From: Candidatus Gottesmanbacteria bacterium
GTDB taxonomy: Bacteria > Patescibacteriota > Microgenomatia > UBA10105 > UBA927
Direction of reading: 5' to 3'
Length of the DNA: 64,000 nt
Assembly: GCA_016214885.1 (NCBI GenBank)
Contig: JACRMP010000005.1
Coordinates: 134,725 to 198,724 of the forward strand
Position 1 is the first letter of the stretch, and every line of letters begins with the position of its first letter. The notes under the pieces were generated by a model that had not been told where the DNA came from, searched no databases, and saw only the letters and a list, made by a program, of their open reading frames with translations. Shown one piece after another: positions 4,110 through 34,084 of the stretch. The position numbers and the translations under genes are program-made.

Positions 4110-4250
4110 AGAGTCTTACCATTGTACCAGACAGAGCGAAACGGGCCATTAGCTTTTATTATTTAGTAATATTTGCTACACTTATAGCCATGAAACGGGC
4201 GATTCTGTCGCTATTTTTGTTTTCCATAGCTCTGTTTATCGCTTCCCCAC

Positions 4251-4664
4251 TTGTGCGGGCTCCGTTATCACAGGTACACGCTCAGCGCCGGAACTGTGAC
4301 TGATGATTCTGTAGGAGAAAGTGCATGCCGGTTTGTCACCACTGGTGATGCCGGAGCATGGAAGTCATGTTTTGAGGGGGGGGGGGCATGGAAGGCAAGC
4401 GGTTGTATAGGTCAGGGGGGAACTCCCAATGATTTCGTCAGTTGGTTTCTGAAACTTGGCACCGGTCTGGGTGGAGGTATTGCATTCCTCCTTATCCTAT
4501 TTTCCGGATTTCAGCGTATTACAAGCGCCGGAAACCCGGAAAAACTCCATGAAGCAAAAGAGCTCATGACGGCCGCAATTTCGGGGCTGCTCCTTATTAT
4601 TTTTTCGATTTTCTTGCTTCGCCTCATCGGGGTAGATATATTACAGATACCGGGTCTCCGGTAA
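4251..4664 (+). CDS. TrbC/VirB2-like T4SS mini-pilin paralog (divergent, Cys-containing N-terminus)
   Basis: The C-terminal two-helix core GGIAFLLILFSGFQRITSAGNPEKLHEAKELMTAAISGLLLIIFSIF aligns with the seven other paralogs. The gene contains a G11 homopolymer at 4376..4386. Confidence 0.55.
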   Translation: MCGLRYHRYTLSAGTVTDDSVGESACRFVTTGDAGAWKSCFEGGGAWKASGCIGQGGTPNDFVSWFLKLGTGLGGGIAFLLILFSGFQRITSAGNPEKLHEAKELMTAAISGLLLIIFSIFLLRLIGVDILQIPGLR

Positions 4665-4668
4665 ACCT

Positions 4669-5019
4669 ATGAACAAAGTGCTTGCCCAGCTTATCATCGA
4701 AGGCAACAGTGGACTTCCGGATATATCTCTCGACGAACCGGAGGGATTTACCTTTAGCGGACAGGGTATCGGCGCTATCGTCGGACAGTCGCTTACCTAC
4801 GTATTTGCTGCAGCGGGGATTGGCCTTCTCCTCATGATTATTTCAAGCGGATATTCGCTCATCATGAGTGCCGGCGACCCCAAAAAAGCGGCCGCGGGCA
4901 AAGCCACCCTTACTAATGCCATTATCGGATTTCTTCTTATATTTGCTGCATTCTGGATTGTACAGATTATGGGGACAGTTCTGGGGTGGCAGAGTATCTT
5001 TGATATTTTTGGCCAGTAA
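4669..5019 (+). CDS. TrbC/VirB2-like T4SS mini-pilin paralog
   Basis: N-terminal MNKVLAQ leader shared with other paralogs; core LIMSAGDPKKAAAGKATLTNAIIGFLLIFAAFWIVQ matches the family motif (TM1 - AGGD-KK loop - TM2). Confidence 0.65.
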   Translation: MNKVLAQLIIEGNSGLPDISLDEPEGFTFSGQGIGAIVGQSLTYVFAAAGIGLLLMIISSGYSLIMSAGDPKKAAAGKATLTNAIIGFLLIFAAFWIVQIMGTVLGWQSIFDIFGQ

Positions 5020-5021
5020 CC

Positions 5022-5702
5022 TTACTTACCGAACCTTCGTTTCCGTTTGGCGTACACTTCTATCGCCTCGTCCAGTTTCTCCGGGGTAAAATCAGGCATA
5101 TGCCACACGGGAAAATACAGCTCACTGTAAACACTCTGCCATGGTAAAAAACCTGAAAGCCGCATCTCCCCACTGGTGCGGATAATGAGGTCGGGGTCAG
5201 GGACACCGGCGGTATCCAGATGAGCGGAAAAATCCTGCTCGGTAACGCGGATAGCGTCAGGCAACGAACGCACGGCGCGGAGGATCTCGTCGCGTCCTCC
5301 GTAATTCAATGCAAAAACCGCAGTAATTTTTTTGTTTTGCGCCGTCTGCTCCATAACTCCCGTGAGCGCTTTCCGGATATCCGGCGCAAACCGGGATATG
5401 TCACCGATAACCCGCACTTTCACTCCTTTGTCGTGGAGGCGCTGCCATCGTTTACGCACCGTATGCCGGAAAATCCGCATGATACCCTCTACCTCTTTTG
5501 CATCCCTGTTCCAGTTTTCCGTAGAAAACGCCCAAAACGTAATAAACGAAACCCCCCGTTTGGCCGCATGTTCAACCAGCGGCTCCAACACTTCATCGGA
5601 AACACGCTGATGCCCTGCAAGCACCGGCAGATTATGCTCTTTTGCCCAACGGCGGTTGCCGTCCATAATTATTGCGATATGAACCGGAATATTATTTGCC
5701 AT
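5022..5702 (-). CDS. uppS: undecaprenyl diphosphate synthase (isoprenyl transferase)
   Basis: IMDGNRRWAKEHNLPVLAGHQRV and FSTENWNRDAKEVEGIM, hallmark cis-prenyltransferase motifs. Confidence 0.9.
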   Translation of the reverse strand: MANNIPVHIAIIMDGNRRWAKEHNLPVLAGHQRVSDEVLEPLVEHAAKRGVSFITFWAFSTENWNRDAKEVEGIMRIFRHTVRKRWQRLHDKGVKVRVIGDISRFAPDIRKALTGVMEQTAQNKKITAVFALNYGGRDEILRAVRSLPDAIRVTEQDFSAHLDTAGVPDPDLIIRTSGEMRLSGFLPWQSVYSELYFPVWHMPDFTPEKLDEAIEVYAKRKRRFGK

Positions 5703-5708
5703 AATGCG

Positions 5709-6689
5709 TTAAAACAAGTGGGTGCTAACGATGTGAGCACCCCGCGCCGGCTTATTATAAATAATTTCTTCAATTCCAGGGAGCTTCATCACAGATTCCG
5801 CTACCCGCGGCTCATCATTACCCACACAGATAATATGGACATTCGGCCCGGCATCTATCGTAAAGTATACCGGTATGCCCTCAGCCCGCAAACGGACTAC
5901 GTGTGCCATTATACGCTGTGTCACGGGGCTCCAGTATCTAAGCGGCGGCACCTGACTCTGCATGACTGCATGCATATCCAGGCAATCCTCTTCTGTGACG
6001 CTCCCGAACAATGCAAAATCCTTCTTTTCTAATGCTTCCCGTATAACTGCCATACGGCGGGGCACTGCATTTAACCTAGCGGCAAGCTTTGGACTGGTGG
6101 TGACCCGCTCCATACCGTCTGTAGTTGAGACTTTTTTCATGCGTTTATCCACAATAACGAGAATATCCCGGATATCCCAGTAATCAGCAGGATGCAGTGA
6201 ATATGCATAGGAGGATTGACTGTCAGTCCCCTTTTCCCATACCGCGAATCCGTCGGGAATACTCCGGCACGCGGAGCCTGATCCCAACCGCGCAAATATC
6301 GTTTGTTCCTTTTCCGAAAGCACTGTCCCCAGTGCTGCAAAACCCGCCATCGTGAGCGCAGCAAATCCGGACGCGGAGGCTGCTGATCCCGCCCCCTTGG
6401 GGAATGTGTTTTTTGTGACCACCCTGGCTCTCAACTCGCTCCCCGCTCGTTCGCGGATACGGGTAAGTCCCTTTATAACACGTGCTTTTTCATGCTCTGA
6501 AAATTCCCCGCCAATAATATCCACACTATCCTCAATGAGTGCCGGATCAAATTCTACGGTAGTAATGGTATGCGCCCCGGTAAGATTCATCGATAGCGAA
6601 TCGTTAAGAGGCAAACGGAGCGTTTCATCGGCTTTTCCCCAATACTTAATGAAGGCAATGTTGGCAGGGGCTTTTGCTGATGCTTTCAT
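5709..6689 (-). CDS. mvaD: diphosphomevalonate decarboxylase family (MDD; a phosphomevalonate-decarboxylase variant cannot be excluded)
   Basis: NIAFIKYWGKADETLRLPLNDSLSMNLT matches the GHMP-family MDD N-terminal signature. The start is trimmed to the internal Met (MKASAK), whose ATG overlaps the upstream stop as ATGA. Confidence 0.8.
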   Translation of the reverse strand: MKASAKAPANIAFIKYWGKADETLRLPLNDSLSMNLTGAHTITTVEFDPALIEDSVDIIGGEFSEHEKARVIKGLTRIRERAGSELRARVVTKNTFPKGAGSAASASGFAALTMAGFAALGTVLSEKEQTIFARLGSGSACRSIPDGFAVWEKGTDSQSSYAYSLHPADYWDIRDILVIVDKRMKKVSTTDGMERVTTSPKLAARLNAVPRRMAVIREALEKKDFALFGSVTEEDCLDMHAVMQSQVPPLRYWSPVTQRIMAHVVRLRAEGIPVYFTIDAGPNVHIICVGNDEPRVAESVMKLPGIEEIIYNKPARGAHIVSTHLF

Positions 6690-7606
6690 GGCTCCCTCCG
6701 CACTCCCGGGGCATTCGGAGTAATGTGGATAACTTGTCCACCTGCAGCTTCTATAGCCTTTTCTATTTGGCCCCGCTTCTCCTTGGGCGCTACCGCAATC
6801 ATACAATCGCCTCCTCCGGCGCCCGACAATTTTGCCCCCCAGGCTCCCGCACCTTTAGCGGCTACTATGAGTGATTCCAGCTTTTCGGAGCTTACCCCCA
6901 AATCCCTAAGATACTCCTGATTAAAGTCCATGAGTTTCCCCACCCGCTCCCAATCTCCTTCCGCCATTTTTTCCCTGGCTCCCATAACCAGGTCCGCAAT
7001 TGCGTCAAAAATACGGGTCACCCGTTCAGTTTGTGCTGCGTATTTTTTAGCGACATCCGCAACAATGGCTGCCGTGTCAGCTTTCACCCCGGTAAACCCC
7101 ACGATAAGCGGCATATGATCACTTGCTGCGGGAGTGATGGTACGGCCAAGATGCTCATACCATACCGTGCCACCCCAAATTGCTGACGCTGCATCAAATC
7201 CTGATCCTACTTTCTGAACAGCAAGAATAGCGTTACGGGAAAGCCTGAACAGCTCGCCGGGAGTCACCTTCCTGCCAATATATTCTGCAATTGCGTATAG
7301 TGTAGCAACCGTCACCGCTGCCGACGATCCTAGCCCGTAATTACCCGAAAATCCGCTCTTTGTAGCAACCAGAACGGGCGGGAGTCTGTTCCCCCAACTC
7401 CCCTGTGCCGCTTCAATCGCGGCCGCAACAAACCGGGTGTCTGATACACCCGGCGTATCAAAATGCATCGCATTGTCGTGAGACGGTGAAAGTGAAACAG
7501 TAAGCCGTTCACTCACCGCAGTTACTAAACACGGCTTACCATACACCACCGCATGATCCCCCAACAAGAGAAGTTTACCCGGCGCGGAAACGGTTATTGT
7601 GTTCAT
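6686..7606 (-). CDS. GHMP kinase, second mevalonate-kinase-like enzyme (probable phosphomevalonate kinase)
   Basis: MNTITVSAPGKLLLLGDHAVVYGKP and GSGFDAASAIWGG are GHMP kinase motifs. It sits between MVK and MDD. Confidence 0.55.
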   Translation of the reverse strand: MNTITVSAPGKLLLLGDHAVVYGKPCLVTAVSERLTVSLSPSHDNAMHFDTPGVSDTRFVAAAIEAAQGSWGNRLPPVLVATKSGFSGNYGLGSSAAVTVATLYAIAEYIGRKVTPGELFRLSRNAILAVQKVGSGFDAASAIWGGTVWYEHLGRTITPAASDHMPLIVGFTGVKADTAAIVADVAKKYAAQTERVTRIFDAIADLVMGAREKMAEGDWERVGKLMDFNQEYLRDLGVSSEKLESLIVAAKGAGAWGAKLSGAGGGDCMIAVAPKEKRGQIEKAIEAAGGQVIHITPNAPGVRREP

Positions 7607-8550
7607 ACAAGCACCTGTTCAAGCTTTACCCCCGCTCCTCCCAGCGTCACCTGAAATGATGGGTAATTATATTTTTTCGCCATACGGACAAGTGAGCCAG
7701 GGCCATCATGTACTGCCAGAATAATACCTGATCCGCCTTTTATCCCCCCCGCGCCACTTATCTTTGCGGCGCCCCCCGATTTTTCAATATTCCTAATAAG
7801 CGTTTTGGCGTCCGGTGATACAATTTCCATTTTTTCCAATAGCATTTCATTTTTTGTGAGCGCATCGCGAAAAACCTGTTCATCCTCATCGTGGATTGCA
7901 CAAGCCACCTCTTTGGTCACCGTTTCCACATCATGTAATAAATTGGTGAAATATCCCCCGTCTTTGTCTTTCACTTCTGCCACATGCCGGACTAAATCAC
8001 CGGTGCTTTCAATTCTGCCGGTATTAATAAGGACAAACGGCGCAAACGTTTTGGGTATTTTAAACGGCAGGAGCCACAGTGTTTTAAGAAATTCCAATTC
8101 TTTCCGATACCAAAGCAGGCCGCCGTGAGTCGCCACCGCAGGATCGCTTCCTGAACTGTTTTCGTGTTTTGCTTTTTCCGCCTGGTACGCACTTTCGTTA
8201 ATAGCCTGAGCATTCCATGGCAATCCCTGCCACGCAGATAGCGCTCCAATAAGGGCTACGGCAAGTGCAGCAGATGAACCCATACCACTACGAACGGGAA
8301 CCGTTGAGGCTATAGCAATGCCAATATCTGCATCAATGGTGACGTTATGTTTTTTCTCAAAAACAGAACAGATCGCGTCGAGATATGTGTCTTTTTTTCT
8401 GACTTCAGATAGACGTGGTGTTGCACCCTTTTCCAGAGTGACATACAAACGAAGCGAGGTTGCCACAATAAGTGTTGGCTTGCCGTATACAACCGCATGT
8501 TCACCGGATATATGAAGCTTGCCCGGAGCTGAAACAGTTACTTTTTTCAT
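7603..8550 (-). CDS. mvk: mevalonate kinase
   Basis: MKKVTVSAPGKLHISGEHAVVYGKP and the GHMP ATP-binding loop PVRSGMGSSAALAVA. Confidence 0.7.
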   Translation of the reverse strand: MKKVTVSAPGKLHISGEHAVVYGKPTLIVATSLRLYVTLEKGATPRLSEVRKKDTYLDAICSVFEKKHNVTIDADIGIAIASTVPVRSGMGSSAALAVALIGALSAWQGLPWNAQAINESAYQAEKAKHENSSGSDPAVATHGGLLWYRKELEFLKTLWLLPFKIPKTFAPFVLINTGRIESTGDLVRHVAEVKDKDGGYFTNLLHDVETVTKEVACAIHDEDEQVFRDALTKNEMLLEKMEIVSPDAKTLIRNIEKSGGAAKISGAGGIKGGSGIILAVHDGPGSLVRMAKKYNYPSFQVTLGGAGVKLEQVLV

Positions 8551-8849
8551 ACCAGGGGTTTTGCTTTGATTCCATAAGGGATCACCCCGTCGCCGTCAGG
8601 GTGGGTCACCCTCCGCACTACGGTAACCACCTTTTGGCCAAACACGAGATCGTTTTCATCATAATCTACCAGCTGACAAGTTATTTTTTTGCCGTCCGAC
8701 AATTCTATAAGGGCTACAGGATACGGCGCCTGATCGGTAAATCCTCCGGGAGGAACACGGACAATTGTCCACGAAAGAATAAAGCCGGTTTTACCGATTA
8801 AACCAGCCACATTTTTTTGATTTCTCCACACTTTAACCGGACTTTGCAT
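8547..8849 (-). CDS. DUF35-type OB-fold protein (thiolase/HMG-CoA synthase scaffold), lacking the Zn-ribbon
   Basis: PYPVALIELSDGKKITCQLVDYDENDLVFGQKVVTVVRR...PDGDGVIPYGIKAKP resembles the C-terminal OB fold of archaeal DUF35 proteins. It lies immediately downstream of thiolase and HMGS. Confidence 0.6.
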   Translation of the reverse strand: MQSPVKVWRNQKNVAGLIGKTGFILSWTIVRVPPGGFTDQAPYPVALIELSDGKKITCQLVDYDENDLVFGQKVVTVVRRVTHPDGDGVIPYGIKAKPLV

Positions 8850-8850
8850 A

Positions 8851-9999
8851 TTATTTTTTAAGAATATGAATAACTGACGTAGCCCCGCTTCCTCCTACAT
8901 TATGGGCAAGCCCCACAGCAGCACCCTCAACCTGCCGCTTACCCGCCACTCCGCAAAGCTGATCCACCAATTCGACAATTTGTTTAACACCGGTAGCACC
9001 AACGGGGTGGCCGCACCCCTTAAGACCTCCTGACGGATTAACGACTATTCTCCCCCCCTTACCCACCGTAGTTTGCCCGGCGGCTATAGCAGCAGCTGCT
9101 TTCCCCTTGGGGAAAAACCCCAGGTCTTCCATTGCCAGCACCTCTGCAATCGTAAAACAATCATGCACCTCGGCAACATTAATATCATTTGCGGTCATAC
9201 CCGAAAGGTTGTATGCACGCGCTGCTGCCTGTTGGGTGGCCGACAATCCGGTTAGGGTTTTCCTTTGTGCAAGACCCAGGGAATCGGTGGCAACCGCTGA
9301 AGCGGCAATTTCTACCCGGCGAGCAGCTTTTTTTTGTTTCTTGGAGGTTATAACTACTGCTGCCGCTCCATCCGATATTGGAGAGCAATCCAACAGCTTC
9401 AACGGATCTGCAATCCTGCTGCTTTTCATAACCTGCTCAACGGATAACGTATTATGAAACTGTGCATTAGGATTAAGAGATGCGTGGTAATGGTTTTTAA
9501 CAGCGACCGCTGCCAACTCCTCTTCGGTCGTACCAAACTCGCGCATGTGAATACGGGCAAGCATTGCATATAACCCCGGAAAGGTTGCTCCACCGCTCCG
9601 CTCCTCTTCGCTTCCGGCACCCATAAGTGCAGTAGCGACATCCTCCGGCTTATGATCGGTCATTTTTTCTATCCCCAGCACAACGACCGTGTCATACTGG
9701 CCGCTCATGACGCTGTTTACTGCATTGTGGAGTGCTAATCCTCCCGATGCGCATGCGCCTTCCACTTTAAATGCAGGAGCAGTGAGACCCAATTCTTCCG
9801 CAAAAAACGCCCCCAAATGCTCCTGACCGCCCAGCATACCGGAAAGCATATTGCCGACAAAAAGCGCCTGGACATCGGCTATTTCTATACCTGCATCCGC
9901 AAGTGCACCAAACACCGCCTGGCGCGCTAACCCCCGGGGAGATGCGTTCCATAGTTCGCCAAATGCAGTAGTGGCCGATCCTGTTACATATATTTTCAT
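8851..9999 (-). CDS. acetyl-CoA acetyltransferase (archaeal/SCP-x-type thiolase)
   Basis: MKIYVTGSATTAFGELW..., a thiolase fold with catalytic Cys context GACASGGLALHNA, and C-terminal HNVGGSGATSVIHIL. Confidence 0.8.
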   Translation of the reverse strand: MKIYVTGSATTAFGELWNASPRGLARQAVFGALADAGIEIADVQALFVGNMLSGMLGGQEHLGAFFAEELGLTAPAFKVEGACASGGLALHNAVNSVMSGQYDTVVVLGIEKMTDHKPEDVATALMGAGSEEERSGGATFPGLYAMLARIHMREFGTTEEELAAVAVKNHYHASLNPNAQFHNTLSVEQVMKSSRIADPLKLLDCSPISDGAAAVVITSKKQKKAARRVEIAASAVATDSLGLAQRKTLTGLSATQQAAARAYNLSGMTANDINVAEVHDCFTIAEVLAMEDLGFFPKGKAAAAIAAGQTTVGKGGRIVVNPSGGLKGCGHPVGATGVKQIVELVDQLCGVAGKRQVEGAAVGLAHNVGGSGATSVIHILKK

Positions 10000-11039
10000 A
10001 ATTTGTGGGTCATCTTAAGAAATTTAATATAGTCGATATATGTTTTTCGATGCATCTGATCAGATACCAGATCTTTTGCTTTTTTACGGGATGACTGTAG
10101 CAGAGCGAGCCCTGCAGTGGTTTCCCAGACAAAGGCATCACTTCCTGCTCCTGATCCGTACGACACCATAAATATTTTCTGGCCGGGAGACGCTTGGTCC
10201 AAAATCGCCGAAAGCCCCAGCATGGCAGTTGCGGAATAGGCATTGCCGATATGATCAACAACAAGAGACGGAGCCAGCTGAGCCGGCGAAAAACCCAACC
10301 GCTTCGCCACTTCCCGCGGAAACTTTCCGTTGGGCATGTGGAAAACACAGTAGTCGTAGTCGGCGGCTGCGGTTTTGGTCATCTCGAACAACCTGTTTGC
10401 AGCCCCCATGACGTGCTGATAATACGCAGGCTCCCCCGTAAATCTGCCGGCATGAGAAGGATACCGCATGCCGTCCCGCCGCCAAAAATCAGGTGTATCC
10501 GACGAATACGATGTATCAGCAGTCAACCGCGCCGCTACTCCTTCGCTCCCCAATAAAAATGCAGCTCCCCCGGCCGCTGCCGTATATTCCAAAAAATCGT
10601 GCGGCTTTCCCTGCGCGGTATCGCTGCCGACCGCGAGACCATACCTGGCATGCCCTGCAGCCACAAGTCCCGCAATTGCCTGAATCGCGGCGGTTCCCGC
10701 CTTGCATGCAAATTCCATATCTGCGGCAAGATACGCTGTTCCCACTCCCAATAACTCACCAACAATGGTAGATGTCGGATTCACCGCATAGGGGTGGCTT
10801 TCGCTTCCCACGAACAAGACATCAATATCGGAGGGATTATGCTGAACAGCCGCAAGGCACGAAGATGCCGCCTCGATGGCAATTGTTGCTGCGTCTTCAT
10901 CAAACCCGGGAACCGACTTATCGGTAAGACCCAGCGACCGGGACACCTCATCGGCGTCCTTCTGCCAGGCCGCTGCAATATCGGCAATACGGATACGACT
11001 TCGGGGAATATAGGTTCCGTAGGAAACAATGCCTATCAT
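9996..11039 (-). CDS. hydroxymethylglutaryl-CoA synthase (archaeal-type)
   Basis: MIGIVSYGTYIPRSRIRIADIA...DEDAATIAIEAA and the active-site region MEFACKAGTAAIQ; an HMGS/thiolase-like condensing enzyme. Confidence 0.85.
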   Translation of the reverse strand: MIGIVSYGTYIPRSRIRIADIAAAWQKDADEVSRSLGLTDKSVPGFDEDAATIAIEAASSCLAAVQHNPSDIDVLFVGSESHPYAVNPTSTIVGELLGVGTAYLAADMEFACKAGTAAIQAIAGLVAAGHARYGLAVGSDTAQGKPHDFLEYTAAAGGAAFLLGSEGVAARLTADTSYSSDTPDFWRRDGMRYPSHAGRFTGEPAYYQHVMGAANRLFEMTKTAAADYDYCVFHMPNGKFPREVAKRLGFSPAQLAPSLVVDHIGNAYSATAMLGLSAILDQASPGQKIFMVSYGSGAGSDAFVWETTAGLALLQSSRKKAKDLVSDQMHRKTYIDYIKFLKMTHKL

Positions 11040-12211
11040 AGATCCTTCCCCCTCCCCAGCGTTTCGTGTGCCCGCGACAGCGTCCCCTGCTCTAACGAAC
11101 TTAACAATGATATTTCCCCCGCAAGAACCGCGCCCCCAACGATCTCTGAGAGGCGCATCGCCTCAGCGCCGCTTCCTCCTGCACCCACCCTCAGCATGGT
11201 AAGCGCCTCCCTCTGGGTTGCAAGACCCGTCCCTCCTCCTACGGTGCCGAGCATAAGATCAGGCAAATAAATACTCATATACAAATCTTCACCGTTTTGC
11301 ACTTCTGCTGTAGTTATGCCCAGACTCCCCTCTACGACATGCGCAGGATCCTGACCCGTTGCAATAAACAGGGCGGCAATAATATTTGCATACTGGGCGT
11401 TAAATCCCATTGATCCGCTCATTACACTCCCCAACATACATTTGGATATCCAGGTTTCATACACATGCCGTGCGTTCGTTTTGAGAACATCCCGCAATAC
11501 CGACTTGGGCAGCACCACCTCAGCCGACACAACAAATCCGCGGTTATTAAGAAAATTCTGCCATGACGGTTTTTTGTCCACACAAAAATTTCCGGAAAGT
11601 GCTGTGCAATGCGCTCCCGTTTGCTCCTCAATATAGGAAGCTGCCCTGTCGGTTGCGATGGTCACCATGTTAAGACCCATTGCATCCTGCGTATCGAACG
11701 AAAACCTCACATACCGATACAGTCCCACCCCTTTTGATGTAACCGCCATAAGCGTGAGGTGGTGAGATGTTTGTTCTGTTATTTTTTTGAGTTCCTCAAA
11801 ATGGCTATCGATAAACTGCATTAGCTTCTTGTTTTCGGCGAGTGAGCTCACTTTAAACGACGGACCCCTGGTCGCTCCAGCGCGAAAACTGTCCGTTGCG
11901 GCACCCCCGCTTAATGCAATCGCCTTACATCCCCGGTTTACCGATGCCACAAGCGCACCTTCGGTGGTCGCAAGCGGCAAAAAACACGTTTCCTTGACTC
12001 CGGACGTGCGGGTGAGCGCCAATGGACCTGCCACCCCCAAAGGGATCTGAACCGCTCCAATCATATTTTCACAATTTTTGGTAGAAGCCACACCTTCGTC
12101 TAAGGTAAAACTACCTGTGTGGGAGAGACTGACTGATAACCGCTCTTCCAACGCATTCCTACGGGCTTTTGCTGTCGTAAAGGTGCGTAATGATAATGGC
12201 GTATCGTTCAT
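11036..12211 (-). CDS. HMG-CoA reductase
   Basis: Catalytic-domain motifs ENMIGAVQIPLGVAGPL, TTEGALVASVNRGCKA and DAMGLNMV, plus C-terminal MLGTVGGGTGLATQ. The start is trimmed to the internal MNDTPL. Confidence 0.85.
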   Translation of the reverse strand: MNDTPLSLRTFTTAKARRNALEERLSVSLSHTGSFTLDEGVASTKNCENMIGAVQIPLGVAGPLALTRTSGVKETCFLPLATTEGALVASVNRGCKAIALSGGAATDSFRAGATRGPSFKVSSLAENKKLMQFIDSHFEELKKITEQTSHHLTLMAVTSKGVGLYRYVRFSFDTQDAMGLNMVTIATDRAASYIEEQTGAHCTALSGNFCVDKKPSWQNFLNNRGFVVSAEVVLPKSVLRDVLKTNARHVYETWISKCMLGSVMSGSMGFNAQYANIIAALFIATGQDPAHVVEGSLGITTAEVQNGEDLYMSIYLPDLMLGTVGGGTGLATQREALTMLRVGAGGSGAEAMRLSEIVGGAVLAGEISLLSSLEQGTLSRAHETLGRGKDL

Positions 12212-12221
12212 AAGTAATAAT

Positions 12222-12986
12222 TTATAAAAACGGAACTTTAAATATACCCAAGCGGTACATAGCATACGCCCACGCCGTCATGCCGGGGGCGGAACAAACC
12301 CCCACCACCACCGCCTGCAGAAGAGTAACTTTTAACCCAAACCGCAGGGTAAGATACGACAGCGTCACTTTCCACCATAATAGGGTAACGCTAAAAACCA
12401 GGAACAATAAACTGAACAGCACTCCGGGCACACTCGTTGTCCGTGGCGGCGGCAGAAGTACGTATAACACCGATGTAGCTAAAAACCATGTTACTGTCGG
12501 CACCAGGGTGTACGCCCATGCCAACAAAATCGGCCATAACTCTGCGCGTTTTCCAAACAACCTGCCCACCGCCGCAATACTCAGTGCCGCACAAAACACC
12601 CCGCTTACAGCGCCCATGGCGAGGGCGATAAACTGCTGCGTTAAAAGAAACGGACGGAATGATGCTATTTTTACAATACTTGCCAACGCAAAATATAAAG
12701 ACAACAATAAGCCGATATAAACAAATTCGCCCGATCTGCCGTGCGTCACAATACGCCGGTACGTTTCGTATGGACGTGAGATCAGCCCCACCAGTGTACG
12801 GCCGAAGGTAACCCCATCAACAATAAGTGCGCTCATGACGTCCATATTTAGGTAGTCGGAAAAATGAGGAAAAACCCGCGCTGGAGCGTTTAATTCCCTT
12901 ATGGAGCACCAACTAGAACCCGCGCTGGAGAAGCGTGACAATTGCCGAAACGGCCGGTCCGAATATGATATATAACCCTGCTGCAA
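12222..12986 (-). CDS. polytopic membrane protein of unknown function
   Basis: Five to six hydrophobic helices. The likely true start is the internal MDVMSALIVDG at about 12845. Same strand as the sigma factor and the mevalonate genes. Confidence 0.4.
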   Translation of the reverse strand: MQQGYISYSDRPFRQLSRFSSAGSSWCSIRELNAPARVFPHFSDYLNMDVMSALIVDGVTFGRTLVGLISRPYETYRRIVTHGRSGEFVYIGLLLSLYFALASIVKIASFRPFLLTQQFIALAMGAVSGVFCAALSIAAVGRLFGKRAELWPILLAWAYTLVPTVTWFLATSVLYVLLPPPRTTSVPGVLFSLLFLVFSVTLLWWKVTLSYLTLRFGLKVTLLQAVVVGVCSAPGMTAWAYAMYRLGIFKVPFL

Positions 12987-13143
12987 CCAGAAGACTCACC
13001 CCTACAAACCACGGCAGCGGTGTCACCTTAAGCCGCTTCGTCATCTGCTTATATAGTTGCGTTAAAGGACCCAAGGTTTGCGGTGGAATATCTGTCACCT
13101 CTTCCCACCGTTTTACAAATTTTTGATATGTAGCGTCAGGCAT
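12913..13143 (-). CDS. small single-pass membrane protein, candidate anti-sigma factor
   Basis: 76 aa with a cytoplasmic N-terminal part and one TM (LPWFVGVSLLVAAGLYIIFGPAV). It lies immediately downstream of the ECF sigma gene, 3 nt after its stop. Confidence 0.3.
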   Translation of the reverse strand: MPDATYQKFVKRWEEVTDIPPQTLGPLTQLYKQMTKRLKVTPLPWFVGVSLLVAAGLYIIFGPAVSAIVTLLQRGF

Positions 13144-13145
13144 AG

Positions 13146-13706
13146 TTATAATGACAAAAACACTTCGACAAACGCACGCCTTGCTCTAAACAGCCGTGAT
13201 TCTGCGCTCTTAAAGCTGATTGAAAGCTCTCGGGCAATATCTTCAACACTCACGTGCTCCAGATATTTAAGCACCAGCACCCTCCGGTGTACGGGAATGA
13301 GGCGCCGCATAGCGGCCTGAATTTTTTCTTTCACCAACGAAACATCAAGCTCTTCTTCCGGCCCCAACATGGGAGAAACCAGAAATTCAAGCTGCGGCAT
13401 TTGCGAAAACACAATGTGTTTTAATTTCTTTTTTCGGTAATAGTCGATGATCTTGTGCTGACAGATAGAGAACAGGTATGTTCGCACCGAACTTTTTTGC
13501 TGAAAATCCCGCAGACCCTCCAAAAATGAAAAGAGCGTGTCCTGAAGTATTTCCTCTGCATCCTCTGCTGTTTTAACCTTGGTGATGATATACCGGCGGA
13601 GCTGGGGCGCATAGGTACGGTAAAAAATACCTGCTGCCTGCCGGTCATGAGCAAATAGCCTGGTAATCAGCTGTGCGTCATCCATGGGATGCCCCCACTT
13701 TACCAT
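13146..13706 (-). CDS. ECF-family RNA polymerase sigma-70 factor
   Basis: Region 2 LQDTLFSFLEGLRDFQQKSSVRTYLFSICQHKIIDYYRKKK and region 4 LKYLEHVSVEDIARELSISFKSAESRLFRARR. Confidence 0.75.
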   Translation of the reverse strand: MVKWGHPMDDAQLITRLFAHDRQAAGIFYRTYAPQLRRYIITKVKTAEDAEEILQDTLFSFLEGLRDFQQKSSVRTYLFSICQHKIIDYYRKKKLKHIVFSQMPQLEFLVSPMLGPEEELDVSLVKEKIQAAMRRLIPVHRRVLVLKYLEHVSVEDIARELSISFKSAESRLFRARRAFVEVFLSL

Positions 13707-13708
13707 AA

Positions 13709-14056
13709 TTGACGCATCCGCTCAATTTTAGGTACACTGAAAGTATGTTTGAACAGGTGCTGGCCCAATCCGAAGATTTACAGGCGCTCGCCCCCAATCC
13801 CGGGCTTACATCGTTTGGCATGCTTATTACCGCAATTGTAAAGAATTCATTCGTTTTAGCAGGTATTATCAGCTTTATTTTGTTGATTTTCGGCGGATTT
13901 AACGTTATAGTAGCCGCAGGAGACGCCAAAAAGGCTCAACAGGGCAAAGCGGCAATTACAGGAGCCGTCACCGGACTGCTTCTGGTGCTTGGTTCTTTTT
14001 GGCTTGTCCAGATTATAGAAGTAATAACGGGTCTCAAGCTATTGAGTCCGCAATAA
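13709..14056 (+). CDS. TrbC/VirB2-like T4SS mini-pilin paralog
   Basis: Core FVLAGIISFILLIFGGFNVIVAAGDAKKAQQGKAAITGAVTGLLLVLGSFWLVQ. The likely true start is the internal MFEQVLAQ at 13745, which matches the xxLAQ leader of the other paralogs. Confidence 0.65.
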   Translation: MTHPLNFRYTESMFEQVLAQSEDLQALAPNPGLTSFGMLITAIVKNSFVLAGIISFILLIFGGFNVIVAAGDAKKAQQGKAAITGAVTGLLLVLGSFWLVQIIEVITGLKLLSPQ

Positions 14057-14065
14057 CACGAAATT

Positions 14066-14425
14066 ATGAAGCTGCTCGCACAGGCCGGAGAAATAGTCGG
14101 TTCAATAGAAAGCCCGCTTTCCAGCACCGGATACGGGAGCATATCATCGGGGGCTGTTGGATTGTTTATCACCAACGTTATCCGCTTGGCATTTGTCGCC
14201 GCCGGTATTTACGCCCTGTTTAACTTCATAATCGCCGGGTATTCATACATGAATGCTGCAGGTGACAGTAAAAAATTATCAGAAGCGTGGAGCCGTATCT
14301 GGCAATCCCTCATGGGTCTGGTTATTATTGTCGGATCATTTGCCCTCGCGTCATTGTTTGGCTACCTTATTTTCGGAAACGCCGGGTATATATTAAATCC
14401 GACTATCTACGGGCCCGGAGAATAA
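14066..14425 (+). CDS. TrbC/VirB2-like T4SS mini-pilin paralog
   Basis: MKLLAQ leader; core FVAAGIYALFNFIIAGYSYMNAAGDSKKLSEAWSRIWQSLMGLVIIVGSF. Confidence 0.65.
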   Translation: MKLLAQAGEIVGSIESPLSSTGYGSISSGAVGLFITNVIRLAFVAAGIYALFNFIIAGYSYMNAAGDSKKLSEAWSRIWQSLMGLVIIVGSFALASLFGYLIFGNAGYILNPTIYGPGE

Positions 14426-14426
14426 T

Positions 14427-14792
14427 ATGCGTGAACTTGCATTAGAATTAGGTCAAATCGGCGGCGAAGGCCTGGGGCCATTCGGATCAAACCCGGGCGA
14501 CGGGCTGACCGGCATCACCAGCATAGTTTCTTCTGTCATCGGCATCATGACAATAGCAGCAGGCATATGGTTCCTGTTCCAATTCATTATCGGAGGATTT
14601 AATTGGATCAACGCCGGAGGCGATAAAGCAAAGCTCCAGACATCCAAAGACAGACTTACCAATGCGTTTGTCGGGCTTATTGTCGTCGTTGCCGGGTGGG
14701 CAATCTTAGCCCTTGCAGGCACATTCTTTAATGTTGATTTCACCATATCAAATCCGGGCTCCCTGTTGCAGCAGCTGAGTCCGAACCGATAA
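14427..14792 (+). CDS. TrbC/VirB2-like T4SS mini-pilin paralog
   Basis: Core IAAGIWFLFQFIIGGFNWINAGGDKAKLQTSKDRLTNAFVGLIVVVAGWAILA. Confidence 0.65.
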   Translation: MRELALELGQIGGEGLGPFGSNPGDGLTGITSIVSSVIGIMTIAAGIWFLFQFIIGGFNWINAGGDKAKLQTSKDRLTNAFVGLIVVVAGWAILALAGTFFNVDFTISNPGSLLQQLSPNR

Positions 14793-14796
14793 CACT

Positions 14797-15138
14797 ATGA
14801 ACACTCTCGCCCAAATAGTAAATCCAGTACTCCCCGGCGCTCTGGGAAGCGGCGGCAACAGCACCGGGCCATCAGCGCTGGGCTCAATTATCAGCTCGCT
14901 TGTGGGTGTTTTTCTTATTCTTGCCTTCATTTCCGCCCTGCTTTACATGTTTCTTGGCGGATTTGACTGGATCACGAGCGGAGGCGACAAAACGAAACTT
15001 CAATCATCCCGGGACAAGATCACCAACTCCCTGGTAGGTCTTGTTGTTGTCGGAGCATCGTGGGCGGTTATGATGATTGTCGGCAACTTTATGGGCATTG
15101 ATTTCCCTAACCTACCTATTCCTGTTATCGGCAATTAA
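14797..15138 (+). CDS. TrbC/VirB2-like T4SS mini-pilin paralog
   Basis: MNTLAQ leader; core LYMFLGGFDWITSGGDKTKLQSSRDKITNSLVGLVVVGASWAVMM. Confidence 0.65.
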   Translation: MNTLAQIVNPVLPGALGSGGNSTGPSALGSIISSLVGVFLILAFISALLYMFLGGFDWITSGGDKTKLQSSRDKITNSLVGLVVVGASWAVMMIVGNFMGIDFPNLPIPVIGN

Positions 15139-15198
15139 CCAAGAGTGATAGGCTAAACCAAGAAAAAATAAACCTGTTTATTGACAAACCGAGTTTTG

Positions 15199-15228
15199 TT
15201 GCGCAAAAATGGAAGGTAGTGGTATAAT
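15199..15228 (+). promoter_or_regulatory. candidate sigma-70-type promoter upstream of pilin paralog 15263
   Basis: TTGCGC (15199..15204), an 18-nt spacer, then TATAAT (15223..15228), and AAAGGA 8 nt before the ATG at 15263. It lies in the only sizeable gap inside the pilin array. Confidence 0.35.
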
Positions 15229-15262
15229 AAAGCTTGTATTGATTTGACGAAAGGATTCATTT

Positions 15263-15592
15263 ATGCAAAAAGTATTTGCCCAAGCAGCACTGGATGTTAA
15301 ACAGCCGGACACTATCAAAATCACCGACATCGGCAAACTGATCAGTGCCCTCGTCGGAACCGTTCTTATCATCGCAGCGCTTTTGGCATTTCTTTACCTC
15401 ATCCTGGGAGGCATTAAGTGGATCACCTCCGGCGGCGACAAGGCCGGTATGGAAGAGGCGCGTAACAAAATTACCCACGCCATCGTCGGACTCATCATTG
15501 TCGGCTCTGCCTGGGCAGTGATGACGCTCGTCCAAAACTTCTTGGGCGTGCAGATCATCGGTGGTTCCATAAACTTCCCGAAGCCATACTAA
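15263..15592 (+). CDS. TrbC/VirB2-like T4SS mini-pilin paralog
   Basis: MQKVFAQ leader; core LYLILGGIKWITSGGDKAGMEEARNKITHAIVGLIIVGSAWAVMT. Confidence 0.65.
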   Translation: MQKVFAQAALDVKQPDTIKITDIGKLISALVGTVLIIAALLAFLYLILGGIKWITSGGDKAGMEEARNKITHAIVGLIIVGSAWAVMTLVQNFLGVQIIGGSINFPKPY

Positions 15593-15651
15593 CCGTTCAC
15601 AAAACGATTTTGGGCTTTACTCTGTAAGACTCCTGGGGGATAATATTATAT

Positions 15652-15948
15652 ATGGAAAGCTGCTCGATAGACGGCGTTGTACAAATCACCTGTATCATCC
15701 CGCTCGTTGCCAATGTAATCCGCGCTGTAGTGGCATTAGGCGCAGTAGCTCTGTTTGTCATGCTTCTTGCAGGAGGATTTAATTTCCTGTTTTCTTCCGG
15801 CGATCAAAAAAAACTTGAAGCTGCACGGGGCACCGTAACCCAGGCAATTGTTGGTATTATTATCATGTCTGTAGCATTCCTTATCTTACGCACCATACAA
15901 TTATTTACGGGAGTTGACGTGTCTACACTGCAGTTTCCTACACCGTAG
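15652..15948 (+). CDS. TrbC/VirB2-like T4SS mini-pilin paralog (shortest)
   Basis: Core VMLLAGGFNFLFSSGDQKKLEAARGTVTQAIVGIIIMSVAFLILR. Confidence 0.6.
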   Translation: MESCSIDGVVQITCIIPLVANVIRAVVALGAVALFVMLLAGGFNFLFSSGDQKKLEAARGTVTQAIVGIIIMSVAFLILRTIQLFTGVDVSTLQFPTP

Positions 15949-16000: not shown

Positions 16001-17626
16001 ATGAAGCGATTATTTTTAACCATCACCGGACTCATTCTGGCACTTGCTGTTTCAGTAAACCCGCTCCGTGTATACGCACAGGGTGCTGATGCCGCCGCAA
16101 CAACAGCTCCCGCAGCTGGTGAATGCGATTCCTGGTTTGTGGCTCCGGTCACTTGTCTTTTGGAACCGATAACCAAAGGTGTTGCGGGATCCCTCAATAA
16201 ACAAATCGGCGACATCGGCACAGCAACATTTGCCATGGGGCAAATGGTTATTGCCGGCATGGGACTATGCGATTCTGAATGCAATCCGAATTGTCCCAAG
16301 GGAGTGAGTTTCCAGCACAGTGCAGTTGCCGGTCTTTCGACGACGGCGCTTGCGATGTACCAAAATCCTCCCGCAGAAACCAAAACCTATATTGCCGATG
16401 TCGGAAGAACCCTAGGATTCATGCCGAGAGTGCAGGCACAGGGAATCGGATTCTCCGGTCTTTCTGCACTTCTTGACCTGTGGAAAGCATTTAGAAATAT
16501 TGCCTATGCCCTGCTCGCCATCATCCTTATTGTCGTAGGCTTTATGGTCATGTTCCGGAAGAAAATTGACCCCAAGACTGTAGTGACGGTACAAAACGCA
16601 ATCCCACGCATCGTTATCGCCCTTCTTCTGGTTACCTTCTCTTATGCCATAGTAGGTGTCATGATTGATCTGATGTATCTGGCGATCGTGCTTATTGTTT
16701 CTATCGTTGCCGGAGCAGCGGGACCTTCTCTGGGACAATCAGTGAGCCTGTTTACAACAGGTGGCTCATGTGTAGGCGCCGGCAGCGGAGCGGCGGTAGA
16801 AATCGGCGGGGGCACCGCAACCACCCAGCAAGTTTCCACAATACTGTTTAACGGCGGCGTCGGCGGACTTATGCAGTTTTTTATGGGAAGCGGATTTCAG
16901 GCGTGGGACGATATTGCCTCCATGCTTACCGGAGGATTTGACGCAAAAACTACCGCAGCATACTTTATTGTCCCCGGTCTAATCGGCGCACTCGTCGGCG
17001 GCGGAAAAGGATTGTTTACCGGTCTTGTATCAGCGCCCATACTATTAACACTTATTATCCTTATCGTCTTAATCTTCGGGTTTATCCGACTTGTATTCAT
17101 GCTTATTGATGCGTATATCAATATCATCATTTCGTTACTCACTGCCCCATTCCACCTTATGATGGAGGCAATTCCGGGAACCAATGCGTTTTCCAACTGG
17201 TTTAAGAACCTATTATCCAAAATAATAGTATTCCCGATAACTGCGGTGTTACTTCTGGTTGCGGCGGTCTTGACCAGCCAGAATGTCGCTACCAAGATAT
17301 GGGCACCACCCATGCTTTCGAGCGGCGGCGGCGCGTTTGGCATGGCTGGTATTATCGGACTCGGCATGCTGCTTGTTATCCCGACCGTAGTTGCGGGCAT
17401 CCAAAAAGGACTTAAGGCAGAACCTCTGGTGCCGGGCGGAGTGGCGCCTATATTCGGTCCATTGGGAAGCGGCGTCGGACAACTCTTCTCGTTGGTATAT
17501 CAGGCGTCATTTGTCTCGAGTGCGCTACGGCACAAACCAGACGACAGAAGCGGTATGCAATTAGCACGCGAAGGCTCAACAAAGGGCTTGGGTGCCATCA
17601 CCGGTGGCGGCAGCGGCGGCCATTAA
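16001..17626 (+). CDS. VirB6/TrbL-like polytopic T4SS membrane protein with signal peptide
   Basis: Signal peptide MKRLFLTITGLILALAVSVNPLRVYA, a periplasmic Cys-containing N-domain, then at least six TM helices rich in Gly/Ala, and a Gly-rich tail ...GGGSGGH. It directly follows the pilin array. Confidence 0.55.
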   Translation: MKRLFLTITGLILALAVSVNPLRVYAQGADAAATTAPAAGECDSWFVAPVTCLLEPITKGVAGSLNKQIGDIGTATFAMGQMVIAGMGLCDSECNPNCPKGVSFQHSAVAGLSTTALAMYQNPPAETKTYIADVGRTLGFMPRVQAQGIGFSGLSALLDLWKAFRNIAYALLAIILIVVGFMVMFRKKIDPKTVVTVQNAIPRIVIALLLVTFSYAIVGVMIDLMYLAIVLIVSIVAGAAGPSLGQSVSLFTTGGSCVGAGSGAAVEIGGGTATTQQVSTILFNGGVGGLMQFFMGSGFQAWDDIASMLTGGFDAKTTAAYFIVPGLIGALVGGGKGLFTGLVSAPILLTLIILIVLIFGFIRLVFMLIDAYINIIISLLTAPFHLMMEAIPGTNAFSNWFKNLLSKIIVFPITAVLLLVAAVLTSQNVATKIWAPPMLSSGGGAFGMAGIIGLGMLLVIPTVVAGIQKGLKAEPLVPGGVAPIFGPLGSGVGQLFSLVYQASFVSSALRHKPDDRSGMQLAREGSTKGLGAITGGGSGGH

Positions 17627-32453: not shown

Positions 32454-32635
32454 ATTAATCTAACCAGTAATAGTAATAGAAGTAACGCGTGGAAAAGTGT
32501 ATGAGTTTTTAGTTTGTGTGTCAACTGCGGGAAAAACCGGGCTTTTTCCTTGTGGAAAAGGCGGAAGAAAAAGCGCAGTAAAACGGGGATATCCTTGTGG
32601 ATAAGAACGGCCTCTTTGTGGATAAGTGGAAAAGC
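32454..32635. other. oriC candidate: DnaA-box cluster in the dnaA-dnaN intergenic region
   Basis: Perfect TGTGGATAA boxes at 32596..32604 and 32617..32625. Near-consensus TGTGGAAAA at 32551..32559 and CGTGGAAAA at 32488..32496. The flanking sequence at 32454..32485 is AT-rich. Confidence 0.6.
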
Positions 32636-34003: not shown

Positions 34004-34084
34004 ATATGAGGGCAAGGAGCAACTCTCCCCGAATCGCTGTTGCTGTTTTTTCCGGCAAGACCCCGGAAGCAAACAAAATTAGTT

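Follow-up and report, generated by a model that had tools for sequence, protein, structure and literature searches.

The occurrence of several pilin genes in one array is already published for Patescibacteria. Between 2 and 11 divergent VirB2-like pilins per array were reported in 383 assemblies (PMC12102498, Quinonero-Coronel et al. 2025), and Southlakia epibionticum possesses six such pilins, each essential (PMC10633639, Wang et al. 2023). The six PF18895 genes of S. epibionticum, SEML1_0014–0019, were each scored "GD ES ES" by Tn-seq (PMC10633639); the essentiality of the upstream array genes could be due in part to polar effects. A location of the T4SS adjacent to dnaA/dnaN has likewise been reported for Patescibacteria, and HMM searches are reported to find VirB6 only rarely in Microgenomatia. 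Both studies (PMC12102498, PMC10633639) favour variation or host adaptation as the explanation, and neither reports the strict 1:1 orthology, fixed order, purifying selection and hyper-conserved member (c7) described below.

The window analyzed here is a 64,000-nucleotide stretch of DNA from Candidatus Gottesmanbacteria bacterium (CPR/Patescibacteria). Its array resembles the published ones in the tandem arrangement of PF18895 genes beside a monoderm-type T4SS near dnaA, in a within-array identity of about 25%, in the explicit naming of Microgenomatia as array-rich, and in the presence of one member whose N-terminal domain is extended (SEML1_0015 in S. epibionticum, c1 in the window). It differs in having eight members, split 2 + 6 by an 8.7-kb block. 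The sequence-only reading had proposed eight TrbC/VirB2-like mini-pilin paralogs, and we located all eight as paralogous ORFs on the + strand, two at 4.2–5.0 kb and six at 13.7–15.9 kb of the window, as follows.

4190–4664, + strand: c1, signal-peptide-type pilin, disrupted here (PF18895, 28.1 bits)
4251–4664, + strand: c1 as first listed (137-aa ORF, TTG start)
4669–5019, + strand: c2, pilin paralog, 116 aa (PF18895, 34.6 bits; left-out HMM E=5e-20)
13745–14056, + strand: c3, pilin paralog, 103 aa (PF18895, 20.7 bits, below cut-off; left-out HMM E=4e-22)
14066–14425, + strand: c4, pilin paralog, 119 aa (PF18895, 20.6 bits; left-out HMM E=2e-19)
14427–14792, + strand: c5, pilin paralog, 121 aa (PF18895, 24.9 bits; left-out HMM E=1e-26)
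14797–15138, + strand: c6, pilin paralog, 113 aa (PF18895, 23.8 bits; left-out HMM E=4e-28)
15263–15592, + strand: c7, most conserved paralog, 109 aa (PF18895, 41.2 bits)
15652–15948, + strand: c8, pilin paralog, 98 aa (PF18895, 24.2 bits; left-out HMM E=4e-21)

Two of the ORFs as first listed needed correction: the 137-aa ORF of c1 is an artefact of its TTG start, and c3, first listed at 13709–14056 on the + strand, almost certainly starts at ATG 13745 (MFEQVLAQ), in agreement with the gene callers in relatives. An HMM of the eight copies run against 815 window ORFs detected no ninth copy, the next ORF having E=0.06. The best Pfam match of every copy was PF18895 (T4SS_pilin), with c1, c2 and c7 above the gathering threshold of 26.6 bits and the other five at 20.6–24.9 bits. 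When each copy was left out and searched with a model built from the other seven, every one was recovered (E 4e-13 to 4e-28), while the top non-family ORF reached only 0.03–0.4, so that the similarity is not an artefact of low complexity or transmembrane composition. When the profiles of c7 and c1, the groups that differ most, were aligned with hhalign, the probability was 93% (E=3.5e-7, 71 columns). Together, these two results confirm at the sequence level that the eight copies are paralogs, with pairwise identities of 20–30%. The motif originally proposed, GG(F)xW(I)xxGGDKxK, is found in c5–c7 only; the family-wide form is looser, G-G-[FYI]-x-x-[IMLF]-x-[SA]-[AG]-G-[DN]-x-x-K, with only the three glycines invariant. 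Similarly, the N-terminal xxLAQ is shared by c2, c3, c4, c6 and c7, and c5 reads ELAL instead.

The assignment to TrbC/VirB2-like pilins was supported by the PF18895 matches, by NCBIfam NF045849, by a hairpin model of c7 and by the adjacent T4SS genes. All eight copies weakly matched NF045849 ("pilin-like conjugal transfer protein"; 13–30 bits), their only consistent NCBIfam match, and all scores lay below its 40-bit cut-off. This family is represented by Mbov_0395/MMCAP2_0565 of Mycoplasma ICE, and belongs to an MPF-FATA-type element of wall-less or monoderm bacteria; in contrast to the chromosomal eight-gene set, Mbov_0395/MMCAP2_0565 is known as a single-copy gene carried by a mobile element. 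AlphaFold2 modelled c7 as a two-helix hairpin (H22–55 and H60–94) whose turn carries the GGDK motif. The canonical pilins (Agrobacterium VirB2, RP4 TrbC and F TraA; PF04956 and relatives) are also small two-helix hairpins whose turn is short and charged. Their genes accompany those for VirB4, VirB6 and the T4CP, and their leader ends in an Ala that precedes Gln; cleavage of the VirB2 signal peptide likewise falls at Ala|Gln. However, canonical Sec leaders are 36–51 aa long, whereas c2–c8 lack a Sec signal peptide and have 5–8 residues before the leader Ala, and the array copies do not match the PF04956 HMM (c7 only, at E=0.64).

The surroundings of the array contained the following genes.

12913–13143, − strand: 76-aa single-TM protein, on the divergent side of c3 beside the sigma factor
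13146–13706, − strand: ECF-type sigma factor (Sigma70_r2 and r4_2 matches), divergent from c3
16001–17626, + strand: 541-aa polytopic membrane protein, after c8 in 72 loci
21972–24155, − strand: VirD4-like coupling protein, T4CP (TrwB_AAD_bind, TraG-D_C and DUF87 matches)
24278–25600, + strand: PrgI (VirB3-like) family protein with a CarboxypepD_reg domain (PF12666, 27.6 bits)
26226–28190, + strand: VirB4-type ATPase (P-loop_TraG 2e-25, AAA_10)
28195–30375, + strand: M23 peptidase (PF01551)

The T4CP, PrgI, VirB4 and M23 hydrolase genes lie within 15 kb of the array and belong to a chromosomal, monoderm-type T4SS, in which the M23 peptidase is probably the cell-wall hydrolase; dnaA and dnaN adjoin the T4SS/pilin locus. 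The 541-aa protein, which gave no significant Pfam match in 24 orthologs, is, by its position only, a candidate for a divergent VirB6. The gap between c2 and c3 is occupied by about 8.7 kb of minus-strand genes encoding UppS, a mevalonate operon, Yip1, the small transmembrane protein and the ECF sigma factor.

We compared copy number and gene order across about 65 related species. In 62 of the 67 related species loci, the order c3-c4-c5-c6-c7-c8 was preserved and each gene had a single ortholog; c3 had 65 positional orthologs, and c8 was the terminal gene of the array in every case. Every copy had its positional ortholog as best match, with a score that was in the median 1.69 times that of the second-best paralog, and the duplications were not lineage-specific among these loci. 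The c1-c2 pair, in which c2 follows c1 without exception, was kept upstream or, in distant genomes, contiguous with the rest; in the distant Microgenomates L063 and L067 the order is c1-c2-c3-c4-c5-c6-c7'-c7-c8, and the pair and the six-gene group go back to a single ancestral array. Every copy is under purifying selection, with dN/dS of about 0.03 for c7 and 0.08–0.17 for the others, values that are rough because dS was saturated in most between-species comparisons. Each copy, its N- and C-terminal tails included, has conserved motifs of its own, such as LGQIGGEGLGPFG at the N-terminus of c5 and YILNPTIYGPG at the C-terminus of c4; these are retained in c2–c6 and c8 even though each evolves faster than c7. 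Among 4–5 independently sampled strains of the same species (about 98.8% ANI), c3–c8 exhibited zero amino-acid differences, whereas the housekeeping genes beside the array did vary. No long DNA identity was found between the paralogs, giving no sign of gene conversion.

The most conserved copy was c7, with identities of up to 93% among more than 1200 homologs, 51 invariant columns among 31 sequences, and a column conservation of 0.80 against 0.60–0.67 in the other copies. The c7 protein was 100% identical between species whose other copies were 75–81% identical, while its dS was about 0.9, indicating selection rather than recent transfer.

From these data we favour, with moderate confidence, the view that the eight VirB2-like hairpin subunits are an ancient, fixed and non-redundant T4SS set in which one pilin is major and several are minor. 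The candidate major, polymerising subunit would be c7, given its hyper-conservation and a conserved promoter-like element of its own (below); c2–c6 and c8 would serve as minor subunits with distinct roles in nucleation, as adaptor or cap, or in channel lining. By analogy with VirB2 systems, each subunit would enter the membrane as a hairpin whose G-G-D-K turn lies on the cytoplasmic or luminal side, a short leader ending V-x-A|Q would be removed, and the VirB4 machine would then extract the subunits into a pilus or conduit for epibiotic interaction. Canonical pili differ in being homopolymers of one pilin with a VirB5 tip. In its organisation only, such a set works like those of type IV pili (PilA with FimU-PilVWXE) and type II secretion (GspG with GspH-K), where one conserved, abundant subunit is accompanied by diverged paralogs in conserved order, each required; there is no homology, a class III signal peptide (G|F...E5) is absent here, and the fold and assembly ATPase differ.

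Alternatively, each paralog or sub-operon (c1-c2, c3–c6, c7, c8) might be specific to one state and form its own homopolymer; free-living versus attached cells, or different hosts, are examples of such states. Consistent with this, at least three separate promoter-like sites were found, upstream of c3, c7 and c8, the first two being the following.

13709–13738, + strand: c3–c6 promoter-like site TTGACG-N18-TACACT (pattern scan)
15181–15228, + strand: c7-specific promoter-like element TTGACA-N12-TTGCGC-N18-TATAAT (conserved pattern)

The -10 element of the c3–c6 site ends 6 nt before ATG 13745, and most of the inspected loci keep the TTGAC...TACACT arrangement with this spacing to the ATG; a leaderless transcript may arise from it. 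In 44 of 70 loci the c7 element precedes c7. On both strands together, 2.5 Mb of loci contained its pattern only 47 times, and the window contained it once; judged from this motif and a lower dS, c7 may be highly expressed. The ECF sigma factor and the 76-aa protein adjoin c3 in all near relatives, and the virB2 paralogs of Anaplasma differ in expression between tick and mammalian cells. However, the conserved promoter-like sites resemble those of sigma-70, not ECF, the spacing of only 1–10 nt at c4, c5 and c6 suggests co-translation with c3, and all six S. epibionticum array pilins are essential under a single co-culture condition. We consider separate homopolymers a possible but unlikely explanation.

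It is also quite unlikely, in our judgment, that no pilus is made and that "pilin" is a misnomer taken from the Pfam name, the hairpins instead staying in the membrane to form or line the translocation channel, or serving in the assembly of the monoderm T4SS. Pili are said to be absent from monoderm MPF-FATA systems, the nearest named family is the Mycoplasma "pilin-like" protein of unknown structure, and c2–c8 have no Sec signal peptide. The fold search was uninformative, and a two-helix hairpin discriminates poorly: the best Foldseek match in the PDB was not significant (E=3.6), and a profile search of PDB sequences gave no match. On the other hand, weak TrbC, CagC and DUF6112 matches in the Pfam scan tie the array to the VirB2 clan, the S. 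epibionticum genes match PF04956 together with PF18895, the tails carry conserved Pro/Gly-rich, extracellular-looking motifs, and c1 has a disulfide-type ectodomain.

Bartonella Trw trwL and Anaplasma/Ehrlichia virB2 resemble the present array in comprising many diverged VirB2-type genes per genome in a host-interaction T4SS. Those families, as is partly published, show lineage-specific amplification and diversifying selection, concerted evolution or differential expression; the Gottesmanbacteria set differs in its fixed copy number, 1:1 orthologs, dN/dS far below 1 and identity between strains. The proposal of a repertoire for antigenic or host-range variation, with interchangeable surface variants that diversify to evade recognition or match host strains, made from the sequence and also speculated in PMC12102498 by likening the copies to Bartonella trwL and Anaplasma virB2, agrees with the low identity between paralogs, the lower conservation of tails (0.38–0.60) than of helices (0.60–0.92) within ortholog groups and the strong between-species variation of the c1 N-terminal domain in length and sequence, but it was not borne out and is highly improbable, being largely refuted for c2–c8 by the fixed order, 1:1 orthology, low dN/dS and strain identity, and opposed by the lack of shared DNA tracts. 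Heteropolymeric pili, the alternative put forward in the sequence-only reading, are more consistent with the data, though unproven.

Within the proposed heteropolymer, the strongest candidate for a subunit that sits distally and contacts the host would be c1. Close orthologs of c1 measure 165 aa and carry a Sec-type signal peptide, MKRAILSLFLFSIALFIASPLVRAPLSQVHAQ, and c1 orthologs have four invariant cysteines, modelled as a small 4-Cys module. The window copy is damaged: relative to loci L081, L083 and L084, it has a 23-nt deletion after 4284 and six clustered substitutions. Because of this deletion, the signal peptide (ATG 4190; ORF 4190–4303) is out of frame with the pilin body, which runs from 4251 (TTG) or 4296 (GTG) to 4664. 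Cys65 and Thr76, both invariant in 45 orthologs, are also lost from the window copy.

The window holds eight small paralogous pilin genes, c1 to c8, six in tandem and one pair, as the sequence-only reading had placed them. The ORF list gave them as follows:

4251-4664, plus strand, pilin gene c1, ORF as called (NCBI annotation HZB58_01435)
4669-5019, plus strand, pilin gene c2
13709-14056, plus strand, pilin gene c3
14066-14425, plus strand, pilin gene c4
14427-14792, plus strand, pilin gene c5
14797-15138, plus strand, pilin gene c6
15263-15592, plus strand, pilin gene c7
15652-15948, plus strand, pilin gene c8

The stop codons between the genes were all TAA or TAG and the large neighbouring ORFs were intact, showing that code 11 applies. 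The nearest database records were Candidatus Gottesmanbacteria MAGs. An alignment of the eight products gave pairwise identities of 20-30% and a mean column identity of 37%, with a common plan in which two hydrophobic helices are joined by a turn and bordered by variable N- and C-tails. The motif GGFxWIxxGGDKxK, earlier read as common to all copies, was found in exact form in c5-c7; the family-wide turn consensus was looser, G-G-[FYI]-x-x-[IMLF]-x-[SA]-[AG]-G-[DN]-x-x-K, and only three glycines were invariant.

PF18895 (T4SS_pilin, VirB2-like clan) was the top Pfam match for all eight copies. The gathering score of 26.6 bits was exceeded by c1 (28.1 bits), c2 (34.6 bits), and c7 (41.2 bits), while c3-c6 and c8 remained under it (20.6-24.9 bits). 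Leave-one-out HMMs recovered each omitted copy at E values of 4e-13 to 4e-28, the best unrelated ORF reaching 0.03-0.4, and joined the five sub-threshold copies to the rest at 1e-19 to 1e-28. Profile-profile comparison also linked c7 with c1, which represent the most distant groups (probability 93%, E = 3.5e-7). By these sequence comparisons, the likeness among c1-c8 exceeds chance or composition, and the possibility of a low-complexity artefact is excluded. No ninth copy was found when an HMM of the eight was searched against the 815 ORFs of the window (next best E = 0.06). All eight copies also weakly matched NCBIfam NF045849, a "pilin-like conjugal transfer protein" of Mycoplasma ICEs. The cut-off of the canonical TrbC/VirB2 family PF04956 (27.9 bits) was not reached by any copy, with c7 alone giving a match (10.7 bits, E = 0.64). 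The TrbC/VirB2-like assignment made initially is thus upheld through PF18895, the PF04956 match being insignificant. Type IV pilins and pseudopilins have a class III signal peptide (G↓F-x-x-x-E) and only one hydrophobic helix, located N-terminally, neither of which was seen here; the copies have two hydrophobic helices and an M-x-x-[VL]-[FL]-A-Q start, and the resemblance is organisational only.

The AlphaFold2 model of c7, built on an alignment of 31 sequences, was a two-helix hairpin (residues 22-55 and 60-94, helix pLDDT 87-96) with SGGD as its turn. The model of a c1 ortholog, of moderate confidence (overall pLDDT 67), likewise contained a hairpin (helices 87-120 and 124-159), preceded on the N-terminal side by a small helix/beta-hairpin module. 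A Foldseek search of the c7 model against the PDB gave no significant match (best E = 3.6), the hairpin fold being too simple for discrimination; the archaeal conjugation pilus 8dfu was ranked ninth (E = 7.9). Searching the PDB sequences with a profile of the c7 alignment gave no match up to E = 10.

The genes around the array constitute a monoderm-type T4SS, the core genes (VirB4, T4CP, and VirB3/PrgI) being encoded alongside the PF18895 genes as expected of T4SS_pilin:

16001-17626, polytopic membrane protein of 541 aa, directly after c8
21972-24155 (-), VirD4-like T4CP
24278-25600, PrgI/VirB3-like protein
26226-28190, VirB4
28195-30375, M23 peptidase
31341-34072 (31.3-34.1 kb), dnaN and dnaA, directly beyond the T4SS cluster

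The cumulative GC skew had its minimum and turned around 32-34 kb, at dnaN/dnaA. Since these genes adjoin the T4SS, the replication origin sits beside it, the same arrangement as published for many Patescibacteria, in which the T4SS is often close to dnaA (PMC12102498). The 541-aa protein was encoded downstream of c8 in 72 loci. No Pfam or NCBIfam match was obtained for the window copy or for 24 orthologs, save a single TrbL match at E = 0.92. Its identification as VirB6 was not adopted, as no domain match supported it and only its position speaks for this assignment; it is a candidate divergent VirB6, a component that PMC12102498 notes as "missing" in Microgenomatia. A 1205-aa ORF at 17710-21327 (-), between the VirB6-like and T4CP genes, was syntenic in relatives (1205-1212 aa) and had no Pfam or NCBIfam match; its product could be a surface protein or a T4SS component not yet characterised.

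One genome per GTDB species was scanned with the c7 alignment, giving 557 relatives, of which 80 loci were retained; family members in these loci were called by HMM and each was assigned to the best-matching window copy. The exact order c3-c4-c5-c6-c7-c8 on one strand was observed in 62 of the 67 loci with enough flank, and the five exceptions comprised one split c7, one solitary extra copy, and three more distant arrays. The positional ortholog was always the best match, with a median score ratio of 1.69 over the second-best paralog, and the c1-c2 pair was found 6-8 kb upstream wherever the flank extended far enough. Copy number and order are therefore fixed in this lineage and do not reflect lineage-specific duplications. 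In the loci L063 and L067 of distant Microgenomates, the array was contiguous (c1-c2-c3-c4-c5-c6-c7'-c7-c8), indicating that the two groups of the window are one ancestral array that has since been interrupted. The extra c7-like copy of these loci (6146-6640 in L063 and 9319-9849 in L067) carries a Cys-rich C-terminal extension (CPGPxCDRCPG...), making it a second pilin type to which a disulfide module has been added.

The sequence-only reading had proposed that the array is a repertoire for antigenic or host-range variation, or for heteropolymeric pili. Between species, dN/dS was approximately 0.03 for c7 and 0.08-0.17 for the other copies, values usable as upper bounds only because dS was saturated (>1.5 or undefined) for most species pairs. 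A strain-level comparison was therefore adopted, with 4-5 independent same-species assemblies that were 98.8% identical over 14.7 kb. Among these strains, no amino-acid differences were observed in c3-c8, as compared with 0-1 in c2 and 0-4 in the neighbouring enzymes. Regarding gene conversion between paralogs, no long shared DNA tracts were found, only imperfect matches of 20-23 nt at the GGF motif. The N- and C-terminal stretches, previously described as variable, were indeed less conserved within ortholog groups (0.38-0.60) than the helices (0.60-0.92); they were not hypervariable, and paralog-specific motifs were kept within ortholog groups, tails included, such as LGQIGGEGLGPFG in c5 and YILNPTIYGPG in c4. 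A diversifying repertoire of the Bartonella trwL or Anaplasma virB2 type would be expected to differ between close relatives in copy number or order through lineage-specific duplications, and to show diversifying selection or strain-level polymorphism in exposed parts, as well as gene conversion or concerted evolution between copies. The set in the window lineage is instead fixed and corresponds 1:1, its dN/dS values are low, c3-c8 are invariant among strains, and its copies share no long DNA tracts. Every defining feature of a diversifying repertoire fails here, and a variation repertoire is contradicted by the comparative data.

The c7 gene stood apart from the rest. Across 31 sequences of 71-93% identity, 51 columns of its product were invariant, and the protein was 100% identical in comparisons (L001, L004, L085, and L087) in which the other copies were only 75-81% identical. 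As dS in these identical-c7 comparisons was approximately 0.9, the identity reflects selection and not recent transfer. The 124-nt spacer upstream of c7 contained a conserved element, TTGACA-N-TTGCGC-N17/18-TATAAT (window 15181-15228), the fuller form of which, TTGACAA-N-TTGCGCAAnAAT-N-TATAAT, includes two TTGnCAA-like half sites. Of 70 loci, 44 had this element upstream of c7, and it was nearly absent from other positions (47 matches in all across 2.5 Mb of loci). It may act as a strong promoter, either alone or combined with a regulator site. A second conserved site, TTGAC-N17/18-TACACT (window 13709-13747), precedes c3; in most species 6 nt separate the end of its -10 element from the ATG, a proximity that suggests a leaderless c3-c6 transcript.

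The N-termini of c2-c7 (4669, 13745, 14066, 14427, 14797, and 15263) were compared across the loci L001-L080. These copies start with a mini-leader of 5-8 residues, M-x-x-[VLI]-[FLY]-Ala, followed by Gln, Asp, or Ala. The leader Ala was present in 71 of 72 c7 orthologs, at a median of 12.5 aa from the upstream stop codon, leaving no room for a Sec signal peptide. The long N-terminal Sec signal peptide that signal peptidase removes in the canonical VirB2 type was absent from c2-c8, in which the conserved Ala is preceded by 5-8 residues, and was present in full only in the c1 orthologs. In these, unlike in the other copies, a variable linker and then four invariant cysteines separate the signal peptide from the hairpin. 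An ending of V-[YH]-A↓Q, as in the mini-leaders, is shared by the full signal peptides of c1 and by that of c8 in L063.

In three near-identical assemblies (L081, L083, and L084), c1 was intact and encoded 165 aa. Relative to these, the window c1 had a 23-nt deletion after 4284, directly past the signal-peptide cleavage motif, and the resulting frameshift uncouples the reading frame of the Sec signal peptide (ATG 4190) from that of the pilin body. It also had six substitutions within 130 nt (4190-4450 region), two of which, Cys65 to Trp and Thr76 to Lys, abolish residues invariant in 45 orthologs, and another of which creates a G11 run at 4376-4386. Phase variation at this run was rejected, because the three assemblies have GGGCGGGGGGG there with unchanged length and the frameshift lies upstream, at the deletion. 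A diversity-generating retroelement as the cause of the clustered substitutions was likewise dismissed, as the changes (C>G, C>A, T>G, and G>A) were not adenine-specific. The substitutions increase the likeness of two 15-nt near-repeats 30 nt apart (4353-4367 and 4383-4397), which points to local mis-assembly or micro-conversion. The damage is either a pseudogene in the population or a local assembly error.

The data best support a fixed multi-paralog set whose members are non-redundant and of three kinds. From its conservation and its own promoter-like element, c7 is probably the hyper-conserved, separately promoted major subunit; several other copies would be minor subunits, and c1 would be a signal-peptide-bearing, disulfide-stabilised member. 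Known VirB2 pili are homopolymers with a VirB5 tip, and we know of no T4SS pilus with a heteromeric major/minor architecture. We infer that the paralogs co-assemble into one structure. Tentatively, and with somewhat less than an even chance in our view, this structure is an obligately heteromeric VirB2-type fibre or conduit, with one c7-type major pilin and approximately seven minor pilins of fixed role, among them a c1-type tip subunit that carries a signal peptide and is stabilised by disulfides. On this reading, processing of the short leader (5-8 residues, ending in V-x-A↓Q) would follow a route independent of a Sec signal peptide, and the design would be convergent with the major/minor pilin logic of type IV pili and the T2SS.

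One of the two main rivals is that the paralogs are condition-specific alternative pilins. Genetic data come from Southlakia epibionticum, in which six divergent VirB2-like pilins belong to an essential T4SS cluster (PMC10633639, Wang et al. 2023; review PMC12857230, 2025). Each of its six PF18895 genes, SEML1_0014-0019, was scored "GD ES ES" (PMC10633639, Table S1); these scores fit non-redundancy, polar effects being possible for the upstream genes. The other main rival is that the paralogs are membrane-retained channel components. Polymerisation into an extracellular pilus is a putative property, the pilus still being termed "potential" in the review (PMC12857230).

Arrays of this kind have been published before. 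In 383 Patescibacteria assemblies, Quinonero-Coronel et al. (2025, PMC12102498) reported 441 arrays, each with 2-11 genes for VirB2-like pilins; these were most notable in Microgenomatia and Saccharimonadia and had a mean within-array identity of 25%. The window matches with six tandem genes and a pair, and with a similarly high divergence (20-30% identity). They drew the Bartonella/Anaplasma analogy and suggested adaptation to different host strains, a speculation with which the repertoire reading coincides. In the only Patescibacteria amenable to genetics, the epibiotic lifestyle depends on the T4SS genes, those of the pilin array among them. With the Microgenomatia set fixed in number and order, under purifying selection, and containing one hyper-conserved member, the working hypothesis shifts from a variable surface repertoire to a multi-subunit machine, and experimenters might treat the c7-type as the major subunit and the c1-type as the probable host-contact subunit. 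Precomputed Pfam annotation of L085-L094 missed c3-c6, and often c8, in most contigs because they were below threshold; HMM-threshold surveys thus undercount array length in this lineage, as 5 of the 8 copies here are under the Pfam cut-off.

The array of the window is split by a minus-strand block (5022-13706) encoding UppS, mevalonate genes, Yip1, a small transmembrane protein, and an ECF sigma factor. The mevalonate pathway block (5022-12265, -), which lies between the two array halves in Gottesmanbacteria, looks complete, with HMG-CoA reductase, HMG-CoA synthase, thiolase, an OB-fold partner, two GHMP kinases, diphosphomevalonate decarboxylase, and UppS. In all near relatives, c3 has as divergent neighbours the genes for an ECF-type sigma factor and for a 76-aa protein with one TM segment, which may be an anti-sigma factor (12913-13706, -), and a Yip1-family membrane protein (12222-12986, -) was encoded beyond this pair. 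ECF-sigma control of the array may be less likely, given that the conserved promoter-like motifs look sigma-70-like.
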